Source: Mustelus asterias
Lineage: Eukaryota
Length of the DNA: 64,000 bases
Assembly (NCBI RefSeq): GCF_964213995.1
Contig: NC_135806.1
Span: 53,754,001 to 53,818,000 of the forward strand
Direction of reading: 5' to 3'
A program made the translations under genes and the position numbers. Below, piece after piece: positions 34,430 to 59,509 of this stretch. The notes under the pieces were generated by a model. It was not told where the DNA came from and ran no database searches. It worked only from the letters and a program-made list of their open reading frames with translations. Each line of letters starts with the position of its first letter. Within the stretch, counting starts at the first letter, position 1.

Positions 34430-35023
34430 ACTGTTGTTGATTGTCAAGATTGAACCCAGAAATGTATTAATCCTGGAGCAAGAAGACTACCAACCCAGTC
34501 AAGCTATAGTCTGATCCCATGCACAAAGCATAGGTATTAATCACTCATCTTAAAATTAATGCATTCCACTCATTTAAGTAAATTGACGGTCTTTATTGTT
34601 CGTTAATTAATTAACCCACTCCAATTTCCTGAAAGTTGTGGACTTTGTTAAAATCAATGATCTATGCTTTCGAGCGAAGGGGAGTACTTCCAGTCAAGTT
34701 CAATCAAACTCGTTGCTCCAAACACATGACTGTCACCCGCCTCACATGGCTTATAACACAACTACACCACATTGAAAACTGAGTTCGAAAACTTTTCTTT
34801 ATAAAAGTCGTGGCATTTTCAGGCGGGCAAAAAGCGTAGCTTGACGTTACACATTTCGTAAGAACAGGAGCAGCCACTGCAAACACAACTGCAGCATGAA
34901 AGTCCCTGGTGGCTGCGTGCGCTATCCTGCCTTTCTGCAAAGAGTTCTGCATTTCTGAAAGAACGTTAATCTGCACCAACTTGGTCAGATAACCAGGGAT
35001 AATTCACACAAACGGCATCTCAC

Positions 35024-35073
35024 CTGTTGATTCTCTGAGCAAACGCTCTCCGCTCCGAATTTAAAGTGCCCAT
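35024..35073 (-). CDS. DOCK8: DOCK8 coding exon 1 (MGTLNSERRAFAQRINR)
   Basis: ATG at 35073-35071, 50 nt of coding sequence, donor AG|GTGAGA. Matches the DOCK8 N-terminus MATLPSAERRAFALKINR and lies in a locally CpG-enriched unique region. Confidence 0.92.
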
Positions 35074-35420
35074 AGATCCTGTGTTTATATCCGGGGAATT
35101 CCGTCGAGAAAAGATGTCAAGGTTGTGATCTGATGATTAAAATTCCAAGCCGGGGTGGAAACTTCCGCATTTTCACCTTTCTCTCCAACCCGAGAGCCAA
35201 TTGTGTAGGAGGGGGACTGGCTGGTGTTCTGGGCAATTACCAGCAGGTCGAGACACTTCACAGGGGATACATTCTGCTCTGTGATAGTCAGATCTGCTTC
35301 CTGGCCGCTTTCAGAGTCACACGCACGGGGTGATATTAACAGTACTTTATCTGTGCTTAAAGATCCTGCAATAAACTGATAGCTGCTGGAGCTTCAGTCT
35401 GGGAAAGTTGCCACCGAGTT
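35074..35420 (-). promoter_or_regulatory. Putative DOCK8 5'UTR/proximal promoter
   Basis: CpG-enriched non-repetitive sequence upstream of the DOCK8 ATG, with GGGGAATTCC (NF-kB consensus) at 35093-35102 and ACTTCCG (ETS core, CGGAAGT on the minus strand) at 35161-35167. Confidence 0.55.
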
Positions 35421-46610: not shown

Positions 46611-47199
46611 CCAATGGATGTTATTAAAAGCCTTCTTGTAATCAATTCCTATCAAGGGATATGGGGGGAAGGGGGGACCAGGATATTGAATTTGATGATC
46701 AGCCATGATCATGATGAATGGCGGAGCAGGCTCAAAGGGCCAAATGGCCTACTCCTGCTTCTAGTTTCTATGTTTCTACAACAAGTGGCATCTGATATTC
46801 TAGGTTCTGCTCAATGATGTCCCTGAGCACCTGCCTACTGCATGACCTGTCATGGAAAGCAGTTGTTCTTCGCTAAGGGTACTTCTGCTGTCAACGTGTT
46901 GAGGAGCTGAGTTGTCAGGCACTGACAACAGATATCAACAAATTATCAACAGATGGCGCTAAAACATTATGGTCGAAAGTAATTTTCATTGCAACAGTTT
47001 AACAGCTGAACTGTGCAGATTTTCCTTCAGGAAATTTGCGTGAGACTTAGGCTAGTTTTATACAGGAACCTTTCTATGTCTGAATTTGCTCTTACCATTT
47101 GCACCCAGCGAAATGCGAAAGAGTAACTGAGAATAGCTCGTCCACACGCCAAAAAATACCCCACAAGTTTCCTGCATTTACGCTATTCCTAAATGGGCT

Positions 47200-48050
47200 T
47201 AAATGTGCAACCAAATATTCAAGCGCAGCGCGTTCCCCCCTCTCTGACCCGATCGCAGCCAAGAGATGAATCAATGCACTGGGGCCTGTTATTGTGCTAG
47301 GAATTCTGCTGCGACTGAGGCGTTGCAATCTCTGGAGCCTGCGATTCAAAACAGAAACTGTGGCAAGATTAAATCAATTGTGTTTTGAAAGTCGAGGGAT
47401 GGGGGTGAATGGAATGATATTGTCAGCGCAGAGGCGCATTGCTGAGAACTGCGGGCTGACCGGGTGGGGGTGGGGGCGACCAGAACAACAGAGGGAGGGA
47501 CACACTGGAGCCGGGGCTGGGGAGGGCTCGCGGGCGCCGGGGGATGGAACGTTGGCCCTGGGAATGGAACGCTGTGCACCTGGGGATGGAACGTTGGCCC
47601 TGGGAATGGAACGCTGTGCACCTGGGGATGGAACGTTGGCCCTGGGAATGGAACGCTCTGCACCGGGGGATGGAACGTTGGCCCTGGGAATGGAACACTG
47701 CGCGCCGGGGAGTGGAACGTTGCGCGCAGCCCGTCCCGGTGCCCGAGCTGAAGCTGTGTGACACCGGAAGCTGCTGCAGCTGTACACACACTGAGTGAGT
47801 GAGAACCCCCAGCAAATCACATTGCACCGGGACCGTGAGTTTGTGCCCGCTGGATTGTTTTTTTTTAATTAATTAAATTGCGGGGGTTTTGTTGATGTTG
47901 ACATTGGGGTAGTTCAAGGAAAGCTGGAACGGTCGCTGGAGTTTTACACGCGGGGGTTGGGGAGCTTCGGGGGGGGTTTAGCTCCGCTGAAGTTATTGCA
48001 GATTCCTTTCTAATTCTAAGTTCGTTATCGGTGTGGATTTTAAAGGCAGG
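47200..48050 (+). promoter_or_regulatory. CpG/GC-rich promoter and candidate non-coding first exon(s) for UQCRQ/ZNG1
   Basis: Most GC/CpG-rich non-transposon stretch of the window. Candidate plus-strand donors are GTGAGT at 47795 and 47835 and CAG|GTAAAT at 48050. The ZNG1 ATG exon is preceded by an acceptor, so an upstream exon is required. Confidence 0.6.
47534..47722. repeat. 42-bp minisatellite (~4.5 copies; two related 21-bp subunits)
   Basis: Unit ggggatggaacgttggccctg+ggaatggaacgctgtgcacct repeated almost perfectly; also visible as repeated peptides in all ORF frames. Confidence 0.95.
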
Positions 48051-48311
48051 TAAATACAATGCGCACAAGAAGATGTGGTTCTGTGTTTCTATCGGTGACA
48101 TTGACCCGGGTGCACGAGAGTTCCTGTGATTTTAGAAAGCTGATAGGTCAACATTTGTGCTGGGTTTGTGTACCGAGGGTCTGGTGATTCCGGATGCTCA
48201 CACTCCACTTCTAAAAACACTGCTCTCTACAATGTTGCTCTGGCATTTTTTACGATGCACTATTGTTAAAGCACAACATATGGCAAGAACTTTGGATTTA
48301 GTGGCTGCAAA

Positions 48312-48560
48312 ATGGGTCGCCACTTTGGAAACTTGACCAGGTTACGACACATTGTCACCTACACCATCTCTCCCTTTGAACAGAAGGCATTTGCAAATTA
48401 TTTCTCCAAAGGCATTCCCAATACGTGGAGGCGATTCAGGGGTCAAGTGCTCCGGGTTGTTCCTCCCTTTGTGTTATCGTATCTTATCTATACCTGGGCC
48501 AACCGTGAACATGAACTGTCACTGAGGAAAAACCCGGCTGACTATGTGAACGATAAATGA
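48312..48560 (+). CDS. UQCRQ: Cytochrome b-c1 complex subunit 8 (QCR8/UQCRQ), intronless, 82 aa
   Basis: MGRHFGNL...[11 protein letters not shown]...KGIPN...YLIYTW...[11 protein letters not shown] matches vertebrate UQCRQ over its full length (82 aa, as in human). Good Kozak context (aaaATGG) and no disabling mutation. Confidence 0.95.
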
Positions 48561-48650
48561 ACGGTGGTATATGGAGGGTATAATTTCTGATGATGCACCA
48601 AGGATATTCCTGCCCAACTGTTCACTTTCAGCGAAAACATTGTCTCTCCC

Positions 48651-48983
48651 GGGCGGCACGGTAGCACAGTGGTTAGCACTGCTGCTTCACAGCTCCAGGG
48701 TCCCGGGTTCAATTCCCGGCTCGGGTCACTGCCTGTGTGGAGTTTGCACATTCTCCTCGTGTCTGCGTGGGTTTCCTCCGGGTGCTCCGGTTTCCTCCCA
48801 CAGTCCAAAGGTGTGCGGGTTAGGTTGATTGGCCAGGTTAAAAATTGCCCCTTAGAGTCCTGAGATGTGTAGGTTAGAGGGATTAGCGGGTAAATATGTG
48901 GGGCCTGGGTGGGATTGTGGTCGGTGCAGACTCGATGGGCCGAATGGCCTCCTTCTGCACTGTAGGGTTTCTATGATTTCTAT
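48651..48983 (+). mobile_element. Young HE1-like SINE about 90 bp downstream of the UQCRQ stop
   Basis: Full-length with CpGs intact; near-identical to 6143-6478. Confidence 0.92.
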
Positions 48984-50072
48984 GTTGGATAAACTTCAAG
49001 AATCCATGACACTGGCCGTTTACAGATTACAGAGATTAGTTCCTTTAAAAAGCAGACTCATCAACACTTCAGTTTAAACAGGCTCTCAGTCAAAGCACAC
49101 AATTTGATCCACCAGTCTCCTCGCGATATCTATGCAAATTGGATAGGAATATTTGGTGATTTAATCAGGTTTTCAGTACTAAGTTGCTCTCAATGTCCAC
49201 TACATGTTTCACTGCATGTGATCGCTCAAATTGTGTGTGTATTATTGGGCATTGGGGTGTGTTTAAATTCCCCGCCTCAGGATGTAATAATGTGACAGTT
49301 AAAGAGTTGATGCCAGCATGACTATAAACCGAAGTATTGACCCAAAGCGGTGCATCGTCTGAGTTGCAAGTTACCATTGTTCTTGCTGAATGGCAGCCCA
49401 GAAATTGGTTCATGACAACACCTACATTTCTTTGGATGTAGCTAATTGGTCAGCATAAACCATGGTTTGTAACATCCCCCATTGCAAATTAGACTCAGAA
49501 CTCTATTCCAATTAATTCTGGGCTTTCAATCAGCATATCATACCCCTGCCATAGTAACTAATTAACCACCTTCATCACTACTCATTCACCACCAATGTTC
49601 TATGATGTTCAATCACGCCACTCTGTAAATTTTGAAATGTGTTTTATGTTGGTGCATGTGTCAGGTATTGGCATTGATGGTGGTCTGGTGCTCTTCTATT
49701 ATGCCTTGTTTACTATTATGACTACATAAACACATTTTGGTCCTGCATTGTCAACACGTGCACTTCTTTAATGCAACTCTGCACAATCAAATAACATGAT
49801 GCAAAACAGTGAAGATATGATTAATATGGTACCAATTGGGTTGCATGGTCATCTAATCTGCTCAGTCCAAATGGCTGCAAAACTCTCCCCTTCAGGTTTT
49901 TTTAAATATTCGGTGAGAGATTTCTGCTGGCGCTGTTTGCCATCTTTTTCACTCCATTCCCTTTAATGAGTGAGTGTTGCCTTTAAATATAAGAGCACTG
50001 TGAATTAACATTGTGATTATGGAATCCCTGCCTGTGGTACACTGGCCTCACCATTGTAGCATCACAGAATTT

Positions 50073-50271
50073 TAGAATCCCTACAGTGCAGAAGGACAGC
50101 AATCCCACCTAGGCCCTCTACCCATGACCCCACGTATTTACCCTGCTAAACTCCCTGACATCTAAGGGACAATTTAGCATAGCCAATCAACCTAACTCAC
50201 ACATCTTTGGATTGTGGGAGAAAACTGAAGGAAACCCACGCAGACACAGGGAGAACTTGCAAACTCCACAC
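50073..50271 (-). mobile_element. HE1-like SINE, truncated
   Basis: Body and tail match in minus orientation. Confidence 0.8.
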
Positions 50272-50633
50272 ACGTATAATGTAATTTGATTCATCTGTTT
50301 TTGCTTGCATTAACTTAAGTTATCAGTGAGGAAGTAGCAACAATTTGTCAGTGGTTTTATATATATAGAATAGGCAAAAAAAATCTTACATAAAACTGTT
50401 CTATGTTGCTGCATTGCATTAATGCTTTTGCTTTATATTTTTAAGCTACTTCAATTTTTCAAATTTCTTGCCAGATCTACTAAGTATTGGACACACCATT
50501 GACAACTTACCTGCATTTTCCGCAGATCAACACCTGTTTTGAGACAAGGTGAGAAGGCTAAAACCCTGCTCCAAAATTGTCATCATAAGTATTTTGAAAA
50601 TGCCCCCAATATAGTCAGCATTCCAATGATAAA

Positions 50634-50815
50634 TAACAAAAACAAATAATACTGGAAAATCTCAGCAGTTCTGACAGCATCTGTGGAGAGAGAATAGAGC
50701 CAATAGAGCTCTGACGAAGGATAATCCAGACGAAAACAATTGGGTCTATTCTCTCTCCACAGATGCTGTCAGACTTGCTGAGATATTCCAGCATCCGCAG
50801 TATTTTGTTTTTATT
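50634..50815. mobile_element. Inverted pair of family-2 PLE terminal repeats
   Basis: ctggaaaatctcagcagttctgacagcatctgtggagagagaataga has an inverted counterpart at ~50745-50792; degenerate CTGACGA...GAAA at 50711-50736. Confidence 0.65.
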
Positions 50816-52344
50816 CCAATTATAAATCCTGCTCTCCAAAATGCATGATTAAAACATTATTTAAATTTATTGTATGCTTGGCATCTGGATTTGTGAGATT
50901 TTAACAGTTCTGTTCGTTAAGTTGTCGACCTATTGAGCTTTGCAACCTCTCATTTTGCGAGATTCATTTAACAATAATTTGATATTTTTACACTTTAAAC
51001 TCAAAATATTAATTATGTTAGCTAAAGATAACTGATTTCCTATTTTTGTTTGATGTTTAAATACATTTTGCCACTTTTGTTTCCTATAGTTATTTTGCAT
51101 TGGAATAAACTCATTGCAAATTCCATTAAATATCCTGACTCATTCCACTGGCTTCCCAGCAGATCCAAGGTGGGTAGAGCTGGAACTATGCCTATGTTTT
51201 TCACCCTATGTTCCCCAGCATCTAGCGCTTGAATGTTTGTGGATAGGACTTGGCAGGTTTTTATTGGAATGGGAACTGTGCAGTCACTCACAGCATTGCC
51301 TTGCCCTGCCCCGCCCCTAAGAATGATGATGCACAGATACTCACCCGAGCGGCAACCCCTCATCTGCTGGGGACACTACCTTACCTGTGCAACGGTTACT
51401 ACTGCCAGAAGCATTGTCAGGTCTGGTGGATCAGGGAGACTGCGGTGGCATCAGAAATGTGTGGGTTTGGGTAGGTGATCTCCTGGGCTCTGTTGGAGAT
51501 TTCTTCCACAAATTGGAAAGCTGGGTCCAAAAGTTCTGCCAAGTCTCATTTTAAAATGACACTTATTTAAGATGTCAGTGGCCCACTTTCCCTGTAAATA
51601 TAATATTCAACTGATTAAACGCATGTTTATTCATATTTTTTAGAGAATAATATTGCAGAACAATTTTTCTTAAACTTACAATGTGGTCTCTCTTAGAATG
51701 AGTAGTTGATAACACGTAACACAAATCTATTTGGACAAATTGCAGAATGTTGATGTAAGTGTGAAATGACATTAAAATCACACTAAGGGAAATTTTTATA
51801 GATAGATTTATTTGAATGAATTGCAAATAATACATGACACTTCCCAGAAGAGAATCTCCTGACTCTTTTATTACTTGACAACTGCAATCAGAATTTATAG
51901 TTTTTTTTTAAAAATCCATGTGAAGAAAAGGAATACACTATGAAAATTGTCACTTTTCAATACTTTTGGTACTGTCTAAGAATGGTAAAACTACCAGTTA
52001 GCTAAAAATGCTGTCATTTTCCATTTTGTTTGTTGTCTTTCCACTCTTCTGATTTCATTAGTTTATCTTCCGTCTAAGTGTATACTTTATTGCACTGGAG
52101 TGAAGATTGATCTTGTTTACATTTTTGAGTGAAGCAAGCTTTGAGATTGCACTTGATTTAGTTGGCCCATGCACCATACAGGAACAGGTTCAATCCCTGA
52201 TCAGTGCTGAGTTAGCTTATTTCAATTGGGCTAATGCTCAGGAGCCAAATCTGGCTTGAGTCACCCTGGGCTAAGAAGAGAAAAATCGGCAAGTGTTCTG
52301 CTCTTGATTCTAACTTGTGATTCCTAGTACCACATTACAGTGCA

Positions 52345-54831
52345 AGGCTCTCCACACTGGTAGGCGTGGTCTATAGGCCCCCAGATAATAACTTAGAGGT
52401 GGGGAGGGCTATAAACAAGCAAATAATGGATGCGTGCAAAAGTGGAACGGCAATAATCATGGGGGATTTTAACCTACATATTGATTGGTCGACTCAAATT
52501 GGACGTGGAGGGCTTGAGTAAGAGTTCTTGGAATGCTGTCGGGATTGTTTCATTGAACAGTATGTTACAGAACCTACGAGAGAGCGAGCTATCTTGGATA
52601 TGGTTCTGTGCAATGAGACAGGTAGGATTAAGGATCTTCTTGTGAAGGATCCTCTTGGGATGAGTGATCATAATATGGTGGAATTTCTGATACAGATGGA
52701 GGGTGAGAAAGTCGGGTCCCAAACCAGTGCCCTCTGCTTGAACAGAGGGGAGTACGATAGGATGAGGGTGGAATTGGCTAATGTAGACTGGGCGAGCAGA
52801 CTGGTAGGTAGGACAGCTGAGGAACAGTGGAGGATTTTTAAGGAGATTTTTTTAAGTACTCAGCAAAAATATATTCCGGTGATAAAGAAGGACTGTAAGA
52901 AAAAGGATAACCGGACGTGGATAACGAAGGAAATAAAGGAGAGTATTAAAATAAAATCAGATGCGTACAGAGTGGCCAAAAATAGTGGAGAATTAGTGGA
53001 TTGGGAAAGCTTTAAAGAAAAACAAAGAACGACTAAGAAAGCGATTAAGAAAGGAAAGATAGATTATGAAACTAAACTAGCTCAAAATATAAAAAATGAT
53101 AGTAAAAGTTTTTACAAGCATATAAAAAGGAATAGAGTGGCTAGAGTGAATGTTGGACCCTTGGAAGATGAGAGGGGGGATTTAATAGTGGAAAACGAGG
53201 AAATGGCTGAGACTTTAAATAAGTTCTTTGTGTCGGTCATCACGGTGGAAGACACAAATAGTTTGCCGAATATTAGAGATCGAGAGTTGGTGGGAGGGGA
53301 GGTCCTTAATAAAATTACTGTTACTAAGGAGGTGGTGCTTGGTAGACTAATAGGACTGAAGGTAGACAAGTCCCCGGGCCCGGATGGAATGCATCCCAGG
53401 GTACTGAAAGAAATGGCTGAGGTAATAGCAGATGCGTTAGTAGTAATTTATCAAAATTCGCTGGACTCTGGGGTAGTGCCGGCTGACTGGAAAACAGCTA
53501 CTGTTACGCCGCTGTTTAAAAAGGAAGTAGACAAAAGGCGGGTAACTACAGGCCGGTTAGCTTAACGTCCGTAGTTGGGAAGATGCTAGAGTCCATTATT
53601 AAAGAGGAAATAACAGAGCACCTGAATAAGAATGGTTCGATCAAGCAGACGCAGCATGGATTCATGAAGGGAAAGTCGTGTTTGACGAATCTACTGGACT
53701 TTTATGAAGATGTCACTAGTGCGGTTGACAGAGGGGAAACGGTAGATGTGGTGTTTTTAGATTTCCAGAAGGCGTTCGATAAGGTGCCTCACAAAAGGTT
53801 GCTGCAGAAGATTGGGGTACACGGAGTTAGGGGTAAGGTGTTGGCGTGGATTGGGGATTGGCTATCTAACAGGAAGCAGAGAGTTGGGATAAATGGGTGC
53901 TTTTCTGGTTGGCAGTTGGTGACCAGTGGCGTGCCGCAGGGATCGGTGCTGGGGCCTCAATTGTTTACCATTTACATAGATGATCTGGAGGAGGGGACTG
54001 AATGTAGGGTATTCAAGTTTGCTGATGACACGAAGGTGAGTGGGAAAGTGAATTGCGTGGAGGACGCGGAAAGTCTGCAGAGAGATTTGGATAGGCTGAG
54101 CGAGTGGGCGAGGATCTGGCAGATGGAATATAATGTTAGCAAATGTGAGGTTATCCACTTTGGAAGAAATAATAGTAAATTGGAATATTATTTAAATGGA
54201 GAAAAATTACATCGTGCGACTGTGCAGAGGGACCTGGGGGTCCTTGTGCACGAATCGCAAAAACTCAGTCTGCAGGTGCAGCAGGTAATCAAGAAGGCGA
54301 ATGGAATGTTGGCCTTTATCGCGAGGGGGATAGAATATAAAAGCAGGGAGGTCTTGCTGCAACTGTACAAGGCACTGGTGAGGCCGCAACTGGAGTACTG
54401 TGTGCAGTTTTGGTCCCCTTATTTGCGAAAGGATATATTGGCCTTGGAGGGAGTGCAGAGAAGGTTCACCAGGTTGATACCGGAGATGAGGGGTGTAGCT
54501 TATGGGGAGAGATTAAACAGATTGGGTCTGTACTTGTTGGAGTTTAGAAGGATGAGGGGTGATCTTATAGAGACATATAAGATAATGAAGGGGCTGGATA
54601 GGGTAGAGGTGGAGAGATTCTTTCCACTTAGAAAGGAAACCAGAACTAGAGGGCACAGCCTCAAAATAAGGGGGGGGGGCGGTTCAGAACAGAGTTGAGG
54701 GGGAACTTCTTCTCTCAGAGGGTAGTGAATCTCTGGAATTCTCTGCCCACTGAAGTGGTGGAGGCTTCCTCGTTGAATATGTTTAAATCACGGGTAGATA
54801 GTTTTCTGATCGATAAGGGAATTAGGGGATA
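52345..54831 (+). mobile_element. CR1 LINE, 5'-truncated ORF2 (endonuclease end plus RT); its 3' end resumes at 57558-57690
   Basis: ORFs 52528-53565 and 53583-54698 (KSPGPDG, DFQKAFDKV, GVPQGSVLGP, FADDTK) with frameshifts near 53520 and 54670; (ttcttatg)n tail at ~57668-57690. Confidence 0.95.
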
Positions 54832-57557
54832 GAACATAGAACATAGAACATTACAGCGCAGAACAGGCCCTTCGGCCCACGATGTTGCACCGACCAGTTA
54901 AAAAAAAAAAAAAAAACTGTGACCCTCCAACCTAAACCAATTTCTTTTCGTCCATGAACCTATCTACGGATCTCTTAAACGCCCCCAAACTAGGCGCATT
55001 TACTACTGATGCTGGCAGGGCATTCCAATCCCTCACCACCCTCTGGGTAAAGAACCTACCCCTGACATCGGTTCTATAACTACCCCCCCTCAATTTAAAG
55101 CCATGCCCCCTCGTGCTGGATTTCTCCATCAGAGGAAAAAGGCTATCACTATCCACCCTATCTAAACCTCTAATCATCTTATATGTTTCAATAAGATCCC
55201 CTCTTAGCCGCCGCCTTTCCAGCGAAAACAATCCCAAATCCCTCAGCCTCTCCTCATAGGATCTCCCCTCCATACCAGGCTACATCCTGGTAAACCTCCT
55301 CTGCACCCTCTCCAAAGCCTCCACATCCTTCCTGTAATGTGGGGACCAGAACTGCACACAGTACTCCAAGTGCGGCCGCACCAGAGTTGTGTACAGTTGC
55401 AACATAACGCTACGACTCCTAAATTCAATCCCCCTACCAATAAACGCCAAGACACCATATGCCTTCTTAACAACCTTATCTACTTGATTCCCAACTTTCA
55501 GGGATCTATGCACACATACACCTAGATCCCTCTGCTCCTCCACACTATTCAAAGTCCTCCCATTAGCCCTATACTCAACACATCTGTTATTCCTACCAAA
55601 GTGAATTACCTCACACTTCTCCGCATTAAACTCCATCCGCCACCTCTCGGCCCAACTTTGCAACCTGTCTAAGTCTTCCTGCAAACTACGACACCCTTCC
55701 TCACTGTCTACCACACCACCGACTTTGGTGTCATCAGCAAATTTGCTAATCCACCCAACTATACCCTCATCCAGATCATTAATAAATATTACAAACAGCA
55801 GTGGCCCCAAAACAGATCCCTGAGGTACACCACTTGTAACCGCACTCCATGATGAATATTTACTATCAACCACCACCCTCTGTTTCCTATCCGCTAGCCA
55901 ATTCCTGATCCAATTTCCTAGATCACCCCCAATCCCATACATCTGCATTTTCTGCAGAAGCCTACCATGGTGAACCTTATCAAACGCCTTACTAAAATCC
56001 ATATATACCACGTCCACTGCCTTGCCCCCATCCACCTCCTTGGTCACTTTCTCAAAAAACTCAATAAGGTTAGTAAGGCACGACCTACCTGCCACAAAAC
56101 CATGCTGACTATCACCTATCAATTCATTACTCTCCAAATAACTATAAATCCTATCCCTTATAATTTTTTCCAACATCTTGCCGACAACAGAAGTGAGACT
56201 CACCGGTCTATAATTCCCGGGGAAGTCTCTGTTCCCCTTCTTAAACAATGGGACAACATTCGCTAACCTCCAATCTTCTGGTACTATACCAGAGGCCAAC
56301 GACGACCTGAAGATCAGAGCCAGAGGCTCTGCAATCACTTCTCTTGCCTCCCAGAGAATCCTTGGATAAATCCCATCCGGACCAGGGGATTTATCTATTT
56401 TCAGACCCTCCAGAATATCCTGCACATCCTCCTTATCAACTGTAATACTGTCTATTCTACTCCCTTGCAACCCAGTGTCCTCCTCAGCTATATTCATGTC
56501 CCCTTGCGTGAACACCGAAGAGAAATATTGGTTCAATGCTTCACCAATCTCCTCCGGTTCCACACATAACTTCCCTCTGCCATCTATAACTGGCCCTAAA
56601 CTTGCCCTAACCAACCTTCTGTTCTTGACATACCTATAGAACGCCTTAGGATTCTCTTTAACCCTATCCGCCAAAGTCTTCTCATGTCCCCTTTTAGCCC
56701 TTCTAAGCTCGCTCTTCAACTCCCTCTTAGCCAATCTAAAGCTTTCTAGTGCACTACCCGAGTGCTCACGTCTCATCCGAACATAAGCCTCCTTTTTCTT
56801 TTTAACCAACAAAGAAACTTTTTTGGTGCACCACGGTTCCCTAGCCCTACCAATTCCTCCTTGCCTGACAGGGACATACCTATCACAGACTCGCAGTAGC
56901 TGCTCCTTGAAAAAACTCCACATGTCGGACGTTCCCAGTCCCTGTAATCTCCTAGTCCAACCTATGTTTCCTAATTCTCTCCTAATAGCCTCATAATTAC
57001 CCTTCCCCCAGCTAAAACCACTGGCCCGAGGTTCATGCCTATCCCTTTCCATCACTAAGGTGAACGTAACCGAATTGTGGTCACTATCACCAAAATGCAC
57101 ACCAACTTCCAAGTCTAGCACCTGGTCTGGCTCATTTCCCAGCACCAGATCCAATATAGCCTCACCTCTAGTTGGCCTGTCTACATACTGAGTCAAAAAA
57201 CCTTCCTGCACGCTTTGAACAAAAACTGACCCCTCTAACGAGCTAGAGCTATAACAATTCCAGTCAATATTAGTCAAGTTAAAATCCCCCATAACAATTG
57301 CCCTATTACTTTCACTCCTAAGCAGGATTGACTCCGCAATCCTTTCCTCAACCTCTCTAGAACTTTTAGGAGGTCTATAAAAGACTCCCAACAGGGTGAC
57401 CTCTCCTCTCCTATTTCTAATCTCCGCCCATACTACCTCAACAGATAAGTCCTCATCAAACCTCCTCTCTGACACTGTGATACAATCTCTGACCAATAAT
57501 GCTACCCCTCCCCCTCTTCTACCTCCTTCCCTACTTCGACTAAAACATTTGAACCCC
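54832..57557 (-). mobile_element. Young CR1 LINE (different subfamily) nested in the 3' end of the preceding CR1
   Basis: 738-aa ORF2 (endonuclease GDFN/SDH motifs, RT) continues to 54932 past a single TAG; (tgttcta)n tail; GGATA duplicated at 54827-54831 and 57558-57562. Confidence 0.95.
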
Positions 57558-58519
57558 GGATATGGGGAGCAGGCGGGTAAGTGGAACTGATTCGCTTCAG
57601 ATCAGCCATGATCTTGTTGAATGGCGGGGCAGGCTCGAGGGGTCAGATGGCCTACTCCTGCTCCTATTTCTTATGTTCTTATGTTCTTATCAGCTAGCTA
57701 TGAAAGGCTCTGGACACACATTTTGTGCCATAATAGGGTTAATTTCCAGGTACATGTCAATAGCACTCCTCTTTGCCACCCCTTCATTTCGTGACTGCTC
57801 CGGTTCTGTCATCTGTGTGATAGACGTCGAAACCTGAATGCGTCATAAACTTTGTTCAGTTTGACATGGGCAAGACCATATCTATTCAGTTCAGCTCGCG
57901 ACAGAAAGTTCACATTTTAGGCTCTTAATTCCGCTTCTCATGCCAATTAATTTCTTGTACTATGCTGAACACAATCTGAATGTCTTCCTGCAAGCCCAGC
58001 TGAGTTACAAAGTTTGTAACACCAAGATGCCCAAGTTCAAAGCAACATGCACTTTGCCCTGTGACCTATGCGGTCAACAGTTTTTTTTCAATGTTTTTCT
58101 CTCCAGCTCCATGTTACACAAATTCTAACTTGTGTTAACAGGCGTATAGTTCTTGCTATCACAGACCCATCATCCCTGTCTTTCAATCCTTTTACTCACT
58201 GCCTGGCCGTCAGAAGGTCACTTGCAAAACCATCAGATCCCACCATCGCCTCACGGCAGTCTTACTGTACTGTCTGCTCCTATCTTTTGACCCAGAACCT
58301 TCACTGTATTCTTCTACCTTTGGTCTTCTGTAGTAATGTGTGCCCTCTTGTTGCTGCACCAATGGTGGCATACCCTTTAGGCATCACCTGTTGGTGATTA
58401 CTTGAACTCTGATCTTTAATAAGAAATCTGAATTATGTTATCTTTTGTATTTCACAATTGTGCTGAAGTTTCTCAGGGTAGCCTTCTGTATTGACTTTTA
58501 TCTGTTTACTGTAGAGGAC

Positions 58520-58640
58520 ATGGCAGATGTATGTTTGGGGGAAGAAGATGAAGAAGAATGTCCGAAACTGATTCCAATTGAAGCAGACCCCAATATAAGG
58601 AGTGCACGGATTCCAGTAACAATCATAACAGGATATTTAG
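58520..58640 (+). CDS. ZNG1: ZNG1/CBWD first coding exon (MADVCLGEEDEEECPKLIPI...IPVTIITGYLG)
   Basis: Acidic stretch, CPxLxPI motif and IPVTIITGYLG are diagnostic of CBWD/ZNG1. Acceptor ctgtag| at 58514; donor AG|GCAAGT at 58641, with an alternative GT donor at 58656. Confidence 0.93.
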
Positions 58641-59509
58641 GCAAGTATTATTTAGGTAAATCAGTAGATTACCTCAATTATACTGCCCCATGAGTACAGC
58701 TCCTTTACAAAACTAATTCGAGTCGAAAAACATTAAATAAAATTGCAGGTTTCAAATAACATAGGGGAGGAAACAGGCAGTTCAACATAATCTTTCTCTG
58801 CTGAAATATAGAGAGCATTCTGTACAACTGAAAAGGAAAATAAAAACAGCTTCAGACCAACTTACTGCCTTTGTTTGGAATGTATTTTTGAAATAATATA
58901 ATAAAGCCTGCATTCCTGTCAAGTCAAGGTTAAATGGACAGACATACTCTGACAACACCAAGACTATATAATATATTACTGCAGAAGAACAACATGTTGT
59001 AGCCAATTTCAGTGAACTGTCTCTCTTTCTGATGTCTTCCAACTTATACCTACAGTTTCAACTGTTGCATAGCATTTCTTGCTGTCGGAATCCTTAGGCC
59101 ACTAAATTACATAGCCCTTTGCACACATTCTATCAAGATATTCCTGCTAACCATTTATCTCCATTCTCTATCCTGATATCTTGGGGCCTTGAAAGTGCAT
59201 AAATATATTAGCAATAAAGGTCAACAAGGGAGCACTGAGTGTCCACTTGAAGTGATAAAGCAGATCGAATAATGGTATTCGAAAAATGAATTACATTTAT
59301 AAATGATTAACCTGGAATTACAGCTGTGCAGTAATGTCCTTCTAATCTTCTGAATTCATTGTCATTATATCGCAGTGGGACATTCACATTGCTAGATGTA
59401 GTATATGTGGTTAAGAAATGGGCTTGTAGAAGAGAGGGACTTCCCCATTAAAACATTTCTTGTTCTTTTATGACCAGCTATCTTTAATGCAGTATTTATC
59501 TTTTGGCAG

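Follow-up and report, generated by a model that had tools for sequence, protein, structure and literature searches.

The ZNG1 locus and its likely promoter

The window, i.e. the whole 64,000-nucleotide stretch of Mustelus asterias DNA that was analysed, contains the first coding exon of ZNG1 (CBWD), a likely promoter region upstream of it and, between the two, an intact UQCRQ open reading frame joined to a SINE, together with two LINEs (Table 1). ZNG1 extends to about window-equivalent position 111,350, according to a tblastn search with catshark ZNG1. The acceptor that a sequence-only reading of this DNA had placed before the ATG exon is real (AG 58514; pyrimidine fraction 0.70), and 9 of the 11 cartilaginous-fish ZNG1 proteins compared (16 found) start at the same methionine. 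Two ZNG1 proteins (P0013 and P0009) carry short N-terminal extensions, which fit a spliced upstream exon and contiguous genomic sequence alike and were for that reason set aside as evidence for a leader.

Table 1. Features of the ZNG1 promoter-to-ATG interval in the window
Feature	Position	Strand	Remarks
CpG-island-like region	47200..48000	.	likely ZNG1 promoter
Minisatellite, 42 bp	47540..47722	+	4.4 copies, 94% matches; within the CpG-rich region
Putative non-coding ZNG1 leader exon	47784..47834	+	start uncertain; without ATG; donor GT 47835
Parental exon 1, last 6 nt	48282..48287	+	retrocopy 5' end; exon 1 joined to exon 2 without the 4,780-nt intron
Parental exon 2 copy	48288..48465	+	178 nt, 100% identical
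Intact UQCRQ ORF	48312..48560	+	82 aa; parental 948-nt coding intron absent
Parental exon 3 copy	48466..48648	+	end in (CT)n tract; one difference, at 48615
Full-length SINE	48651..48984	+	334 nt; same orientation as the copy; TTCTATG-type tail repeats like local LINE tails
Broken LINE	52600..54698	+	RT ORFs; passenger in the promoter-to-ATG interval
Second LINE	54932..57292	-	endonuclease-RT; apparently nested in the first LINE near its 3' end
ZNG1 (CBWD) first coding exon	58515..58640	+	ATG 58520; AG acceptor(s) at 58514/58516; next intron GC-AG

Between the first coding exon of a DOCK8-like gene and the ZNG1 ATG exon, a single non-repeat CpG-rich segment was seen, at 47.2-48.0 kb (GC 0.57-0.65; CpG o/e 0.71-0.83), the other CpG-rich bins of that interval having been judged by eye to be mobile-element sequence. 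This segment had been singled out as CpG-rich by the sequence-only reading and is indeed CpG-island-like, although part of it is a minisatellite. It includes a CCGGAAG motif at ~47765, which we take to be an Ets-type site, and a GT is present at each of the three donors proposed earlier (47795, 47835 and 48050). Sequencing run X1 has depth in the bins 47754-47869 and zero depth in the adjoining bins, a pattern that a 51-nt piece with its end at 47834 would fit, as one of 12 integer solutions. A ZNG1 leader exon in this upstream CpG island is tentatively regarded as likely. The UQCRQ copy would then lie inside the 5'-UTR intron of ZNG1 (intron 1), as had been proposed; this nesting is likely, being deduced from the acceptor and the CpG island rather than from a spliced read. 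No ZNG1 retrocopy recording the leader was found, searches with cobW (one match, 7/7 candidates), with the ATG exon and with the leader region hitting this locus alone, and nothing on a ZNG1 leader or promoter beside DOCK8 was present among the literature matches listed, in a search with subscription journals largely outside it. The copy landed on the sense strand with a likely housekeeping leader exon ~0.45 kb upstream of it, a position that favours expression.

The UQCRQ copy and its parent

The UQCRQ open reading frame runs from ATG to stop without disruption or intron and belongs to the Pfam family UcrQ (E 2.8e-34), and its residues 1-82 align to chains of complex III subunit 8 from solved structures, so that the full-length, intronless frame reported earlier is borne out. 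On sequence comparison it is a processed retrocopy of UQCRQ mRNA. Indeed (i) an intact parent gene with introns, namely a 948-nt GT-AG coding intron and a 4,780-nt 5'-UTR intron, is located on contig C16, and both introns are precisely missing from the copy, at 48287/8 and 48465/6, (ii) the coding sequence is identical to that of the spliced parent over 249/249 nucleotides, with a single difference from the parent mRNA over the whole 367 nt, and (iii) homology to the parent is confined to 48282-48648, the limits of which fall within the transcript, with no match between 47000-48290 and 40 kb of the parent region. The sampled pieces of the flanks are single-copy, and an Rfam search of 47000-48650 gave no match. 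The last 30 nt of the modelled parental mRNA are missing from the copy, which accounts for the absence of the parental AATAAA.

The neighbours of the parent are a TGF-beta-domain gene, assigned at family level only and lying about 4.5 kb upstream, and, on the other side, a sequence matching LEAP-2, some 9 kb downstream. GDF9-UQCRQ-LEAP2 is presumably the ancestral block, and the TGF-beta neighbour may be GDF9. The sequence-only reading was therefore right in recognizing a retrocopy, and the second, intron-containing UQCRQ that it had suggested looking for exists on C16, between the two neighbours just named.

Age of the copy

In the whole genome, 17 UQCRQ matches were recorded, including twelve other processed-copy loci (31/31 candidates scored). 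All nine older copies examined (of 12) are disabled by a stop, a frameshift or a lost ATG; their coding sequences are 84-91% identical to that of the parent, and by eye seven of them clearly run into a stretch of A past the parental 3' end, two less clearly so. Between the copy studied here and the parent there are 0 synonymous and 0 non-synonymous changes, and dN/dS is undefined. As runs X1 and X2 both show the window's allele at 48615, the copy has no private change, and the 95% upper bound of its private divergence is 0.8%. The copy thus appears young and is likely a recent insertion, zero divergence giving a relative and not an absolute date. The intactness of the reading frame follows from this youth and, at zero divergence, is uninformative on function.

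The shark mutation rate is slow (7e-10 per bp per generation; PMC10587355), and the mRNA of organism B also differs from the copy at only 1 of 367 positions; the insertion may be common to close relatives. Absolute dating by the epaulette-shark rate was dropped, as copies diverged by 9-16% would be implausibly old.

The SINE joined to the copy

Only 2 nt separate the end of the UQCRQ copy from the start of the SINE. The sequence-only reading, in which the SINE went unmentioned, had taken the missing poly(A) as the sign of an old event; the copy is instead cut at 48648, with the SINE joined to it. For the 195-nt 3' part of this SINE, at least one other copy is identical at 100% and at least three at 99% (40 of the 207 candidates scored), and the element belongs to a very young subfamily; 21 near-full-length copies are present in the loci examined. 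Its tail resembles by eye those of the local LINEs, which carry RVT_1. The element may be a CR1-partnered elasmobranch SINE (HE1/V-SINE); a literature search on HE1/HER1 shark SINEs, with subscription journals largely outside it, gave nothing relevant among the matches listed.

There is no poly(A) remnant at the retrocopy's 3' end, where the SINE stands, and no clear target-site duplication around the cassette, only a 4-nt TATG repeat at both ends. This repeat surrounds copy and SINE together, and no such repeat surrounds the SINE alone. The short matches around 11 sibling SINEs measure 2-4 nt, so that the TATG of the cassette is no longer than those (5' end well located in 5/11). A SINE at the same point in the parent's own 3' UTR was ruled out, as it is absent there in this assembly.

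How the cassette arose

A retroelement with an intact 3' tail lies directly 3' of the RNA copy and in the same orientation, as in template-switch chimeras. We lean towards one SINE-mRNA template-switch insertion as the origin of the cassette, within the explanation of the copy as a young pseudogene; that a sequence-selective LINE enzyme carried a complete coding mRNA in on a SINE RNA handle in one event is, taken alone, only just to be favoured. In brief, a LINE reverse transcriptase would prime on the LINE-like tail of the SINE at the target site, the SINE RNA would be reverse-transcribed first, the enzyme would then switch template to a 3'-cut UQCRQ mRNA, or read one ligated to the SINE, and copy and SINE would enter the genome together as a single event.

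A two-step origin, in which a poly(A)-primed retrocopy later received a SINE in its (CT)n tract and lost its last 30 nt and A tail by deletion, is a possible if doubtful alternative on mechanism, and would fit the pseudogene verdict too. Retroposition of the poly(A) type evidently works in this lineage, since at least 7 of the 9 older copies are A-tailed; 4 of these 9 have unrelated inserts at the same 3' UTR spot, which seems to attract insertions, and SINE copies are abundant. However, parental 3' UTR resumes after all four of those inserts, within 140 nt in three of them and after ~930 nt in the fourth, whereas no convincing remnant of a 3' UTR end or A tail is seen beyond the SINE. Copy and SINE are moreover equally young, and two events plus a deletion would be required.

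Splicing and RNA signals

The acceptor proposed at 48301 is an AG within the copied parental exon 2. The pyrimidine fraction is 0.40 at this AG and 0.40-0.45 over 48301/48287, against 0.70 at the ZNG1 acceptor 58514; the two real acceptors of the parent have 0.80 and 0.70. The first plus-strand ATTAAA/AATAAA past the reading frame occur at 50848/51104, and seven upstream ATGs are found between 47895 and 48280. The copy therefore has neither a good acceptor nor a poly(A) signal of its own, which speaks against the shared-promoter or dicistronic unit put forward in the sequence-only reading.

Four of 22 sequencing runs (X1, X2, X19 and X21) were compared with 47000-48715. Eighteen of the 22 are guessed to be RNA, from organisms A-F, i.e. 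other than the organism of the window; A and B may lack the insertion, and their RNA says little on the silence of the copy. Two RNA-like contigs from other organisms cover the copy, match from 48282 and depart from the window sequence at both copy ends, and the loose end shown for the X2 contig is parental exon 1. These contigs match the parent transcript and not a host junction. No RNA joint into the copy was present among the joints listed, which are from other organisms and bear weakly on the question; SINE-matching contigs dominated the contig matches, and the joint tables list only part of them. Four X19 joints were treated as chance, with sides of ~20-50 nt and repeats or old copies involved.

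Fate of the copy and alternative explanations

The locus is very probably a recent UQCRQ mRNA copy within the likely intron 1 of ZNG1, predicted to be a non-functional passenger. It would be transcribed within the ZNG1 pre-mRNA and then spliced out with the intron; its reading frame would still be intact only because no substitution has struck it, and it would later degenerate as the older copies have. A near-perfect match to the parent might also be expected if the assembly had spliced the parental transcript into the locus. Such an artefact is extremely unlikely, the parent being assembled separately with its introns present and the left junction being bridged by a DNA contig of run X19, which extends over 47667-48314 without a difference and has normal depth (14.8; flank 15.7); this evidence covers the left junction, and X19 may be the sample behind the window assembly. 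No empty allele of the insertion was seen in X19.

At the other extreme, the copy was earlier read as an old, domesticated retrogene that makes up, together with ZNG1, a conserved shared-promoter or dicistronic unit, on the grounds of its intact reading frame and of the missing poly(A) and clear target-site duplication. The missing poly(A) is explained by 3' truncation at the SINE. The complete identity of the coding sequence and SINE siblings at 99-100% contradict an old event: the absence of synonymous and UTR divergence from a living parent cannot be explained by selection on the protein, and the SINE joined to the copy likewise comes from a very young subfamily. Domestication finds no backing in the decay of all nine older copies examined or in the dN/dS check (0/0 changes). 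This explanation is largely refuted already and almost certainly wrong. A nascent retrogene, i.e. a copy to which the ZNG1 leader is already spliced as to an alternative terminal exon, so that some UQCRQ mRNA, and with it an additional amount of the same protein, is made beside ZNG1, is unlikely. Its sense orientation, whole reading frame, parental start context and distance of ~0.45 kb from donor 47835 would suit this role, and retrocopies are known to recruit neighbouring promoters and to form chimeric transcripts (PMC5470649). Against it stand the weak acceptors, the absence of its own poly(A) signal, the upstream ATGs, which would hamper unspliced read-through, the lack of an RNA joint among those listed (other organisms; weak) and a protein identical to that of the parent, which implies no new function. 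The combination of a single SINE-handle event with a copy already spliced as an alternative last exon of ZNG1 is very unlikely.

Comparison with known systems

Like the processed pseudogenes and young retrocopies described in PMC5470649, the copy shows precise intron loss, 5' truncation, a parent on another contig, a highly expressed housekeeping source and many decayed siblings; unlike them, it has no poly(A) remnant or clear target-site duplication and ends in a SINE. A preprint (PMC13320880) reports that, mammals, birds and turtles apart, 70-98% of retrocopies are restricted to a single species and 10-50% retain coding potential. A cellular RNA in 5' and a sense retroelement in 3', apparently from one insertion, are also found in U6-AnolisSINE2 and U6-Mon-1 chimeras (PMC4476161), and an RNA copy in 5' with a sense retroelement in 3' in RNA/LINE-1 chimeras, including mRNA fragments (PMC13174262). 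In the shark, however, a spliced mRNA with a complete reading frame forms the 5' side and a full-length shark SINE, its tail LINE-like, the 3' side; furthermore, contemporaneity is shown by cross-species alignment in PMC13174262, whereas the shark cassette is judged from one genome. With the promoter-capturing or chimeric retrogenes covered in PMC5470649, the copy shares a sense insertion just past a likely host promoter and leader exon; unlike those, it gives no sign of being spliced in, of forming a 3' end of its own or of being under selection. No report on UQCRQ retrocopies, and none relevant on UQCRQ together with CBWD, was found in a literature search with subscription journals largely outside it.

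According to a review (PMC5470649), mRNAs are seldom copied by CR1-type elements because these recognize their own tail. A full reading frame brought in on a SINE tail would, if true, be a route round this limit, and the SINE-ended structure, in a copy so young that its junctions are still sharp, is the point of wider interest. Should the ZNG1 promoter drive expression of the copy, the latter would offer a natural test of how retrogenes are born via promoter capture; should the combined reading hold, one promoter would yield either a zinc chaperone or a complex III subunit, and a retrogene would have been caught at birth. Taken as a young pseudogene, the copy is of little consequence outside annotation, where it would pass for a second UQCRQ gene; it will draw RNA-seq reads away from the parent, and may serve as a presence/absence marker.

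Origin and age of the UQCRQ copy

The UQCRQ open reading frame in the window (contig C6, 53754001-53818000) encodes a protein that matches the Pfam UcrQ profile (E 2.8e-34), aligns end to end with solved complex III subunit 8 chains and has shark proteins as closest named relatives (79-87%). Searched with this ORF, the same genome yielded 17 matches (all 31 candidates scored): the window copy, two exons on contig C16, and a further 14 spread over 12 loci elsewhere. A search at the DNA level contributed one more fragment, of 71 nt. The second, intron-containing UQCRQ that the sequence-only reading had suggested looking for thus exists, on C16, flanked by a TGF-beta-domain gene (~4.5 kb upstream) and, ~9 kb downstream, by a LEAP-2 match, a neighbourhood that fits the human GDF9-UQCRQ-LEAP2 block. 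Given this gene and its neighbours, UQCRQ itself has not moved, and the window holds an extra copy. The TGF-beta-family gene, which has a 1.1-kb G-rich low-complexity tract in an intron, lies on the same strand as the parental UQCRQ, unlike human GDF9 and UQCRQ, which are arranged head-to-head. The LEAP-2 family has three matches in the genome, one each on contigs C16, C4 and C1.

Features of the window and of the parental region
Feature	Position (strand)	Description
DOCK8-like first coding exon	~35,020-35,075 (-)	
LINE tails	46715-46785; 57620-57695	
CpG-island-like segment	47.2-48.0 kb	
Exon 1-like match	47252-47268	12 nt exact (~17 nt loose)
Minisatellite	47540-47722	42-bp unit
Cassette ends with TATG repeat	48274-48282; 48981-48987	
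UQCRQ copy	48282-48648 (+)	367 nt
UQCRQ ORF	48312-48560 (+)	82 aa, uninterrupted ATG to stop
SINE	48651-48984 (+)	full-length, 334 nt, same orientation as copy, starts 2 bases after cut
Next ATTAAA/AATAAA hexamers	50848; 51104 (+)	
Two LINEs	52.3-57.7 kb	
ZNG1 ATG	58520 (+)	
ZNG1 intron after ATG exon	58641-59509	GC-AG
Parent exon 1 (C16)		non-coding; then 4,780-nt intron
Parent exon 2 (C16)		178 nt; then 948-nt GT-AG coding intron
Parent exon 3 (C16)		contains AATAAA
TGF-beta-family gene (C16)	L019:4464-5339	

Compared with the spliced parent, the copy comprises 6 nt of exon 1, the whole of exon 2 and part of exon 3, ending at a (CT)n tract 30 nt short of the modelled mRNA end, and both introns are precisely missing. 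No difference was found over the 249 nt of the CDS, and the sole difference over 367 nt is at position 48615, in the 3' UTR. Contigs from X1 and X2 (presumed RNA runs of two other organisms, A and B) span exactly the extent of the copy, with three and one differing letters respectively, none at 48615; this exact coverage, together with the loose end of the X2 contig, which is parental exon 1, identifies them as parent-type transcripts. As the window letter at 48615 is the one common to both contigs, no change is private to the copy (private divergence at most 0.8%, 95% bound).

Of the other 12 loci, nine were inspected. They show 84-91% CDS identity, and every one of the nine is disabled by a stop codon, a frameshift or loss of the ATG. 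Since these older copies decay and the window CDS is unchanged, its intact ORF needs no selection. Judged by sequence, the window copy is the youngest in a series of decaying UQCRQ copies and is best read as a genuine but unremarkable processed pseudogene of recent origin; the unchanged CDS and an equally young SINE speak against the proposed old event. This age is only relative, and the insertion may be common to close relatives, as mutation in sharks is slow according to PMC10587355 and the organism B mRNA is only 1/367 from the copy. The exon 1-like match, 1 kb upstream, resembles the 5' ends of older copies, differs slightly from the present parental exon 1 and is probably due to chance.

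The left junction of the copy is not an assembly error: a contig from the DNA run X19, which may be the source sample of the assembly, covers 47667-48314 with 0 differences, reaching 33 letters beyond the junction, depth is 14.8 across it versus 15.7 upstream, and no branch for an empty allele was seen in the X19 contigs.

The adjoining SINE and the mode of insertion

The SINE (presumably of HE1/V-SINE type) has a tail similar by eye to those of two LINEs, putatively of the CR1 clade. Its 3' 195 nt have at least one other copy at 100% and at least three at 99% (40 of 207 candidates scored), which puts its age level with that of the mRNA copy. Neither the end of a 3' UTR nor an A tail was seen behind it, whereas an A-run clearly ends seven of the nine older copies examined. 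Because the SINE abuts in sense, is equally young and has no such end behind it, a single SINE-mRNA insertion event seems a somewhat better than even explanation of the cassette: reverse transcription would have been primed on the SINE tail, with a template switch to a 3'-cut UQCRQ mRNA and joint insertion. A comparable switch from retroelement to cellular RNA has been described for U6-AnolisSINE2 and U6-Mon-1 chimeras (PMC4476161) and for RNA/LINE-1 chimeras (PMC13174262). A two-step history, with later SINE insertion plus deletion, is possible; unrelated inserts occur at the same 3' UTR spot in four of the nine older copies, and the TATG repeat enclosing the cassette lends one event little weight, as 11 sibling SINEs show a background of 2-4 nt.

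Those inserts (116-935 nt, GC-rich, directly after the same CATTG in the independent older copies L004, L005, L007 and L008) have terminal motifs resembling one another, as if a small mobile element family preferred this target site. The empty site rebuilt via the TATG repeat is a perfect 12-bp palindrome, perhaps by chance. Three SINE siblings (L034, L035 and L036, on contigs C968, C744 and C20) share the same flanking sequence, which suggests either a segmental duplication or duplicates that are unplaced.

Expression and the ZNG1 locus

The layout described by the sequence-only reading is real, with an intact ORF, a CpG-island-like segment upstream and an acceptor before the ZNG1 ATG exon; the domesticated dicistronic unit built on it is unsupported, the ORF being intact without need of selection and the splice and poly(A) signals poor. 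Its acceptor at 48301 is an AG inside copied exon 2 with a pyrimidine fraction of 0.40 (0.45 at AG 48287), versus 0.70 at the ZNG1 acceptor and 0.70-0.80 at those of the parent; AATAAA is lost from the copy, and unspliced read-through would meet seven ATGs ahead of 48312. Signals for a second product from the ZNG1 promoter are thus poor. Among the RNA joints listed, none leads into the copy, but they come from runs of other organisms, which may lack the insertion. A UQCRQ-ZNG1 pairing was not found in the literature searched, which takes in few subscription journals. The SINE-ended structure is mildly unusual for the pseudogene. In X1, a depth-368 record at 48218-48333 has two ~20-nt pieces, one upstream of the copy junction and one around 48320.

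Against the N-terminal ends of the best-matching shark ZNG1 proteins, the ZNG1 ATG exon is 85-90% identical, and the remaining exons extend to ~53 kb downstream. Its AG acceptor with a pyrimidine-rich tract, and the CpG-island-like segment, the sole non-repeat one seen between it and the DOCK8-like exon, make an upstream leader exon likely. X1 depth occurs in bins 47754-47869 and is zero in adjoining bins; a 51-nt piece ending directly before donor 47835 is one of 12 integer solutions for it, a weak indication, as ~20-nt chance pieces occur in the same output. The copy is probably within ZNG1 intron 1 and, if the leader exists, would be transcribed along with it.

The minisatellite inside the putative promoter island resembles a 72-nt X1 contig (4 differences). 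Only the GC donor of the intron after the ATG exon keeps the frame YLG/AGK. The two LINEs make up about half of putative intron 1; one of them, on the minus strand, seems to sit inside the other, on the plus strand, close to the latter's 3' end, and the tail of the host element resumes at ~57561.
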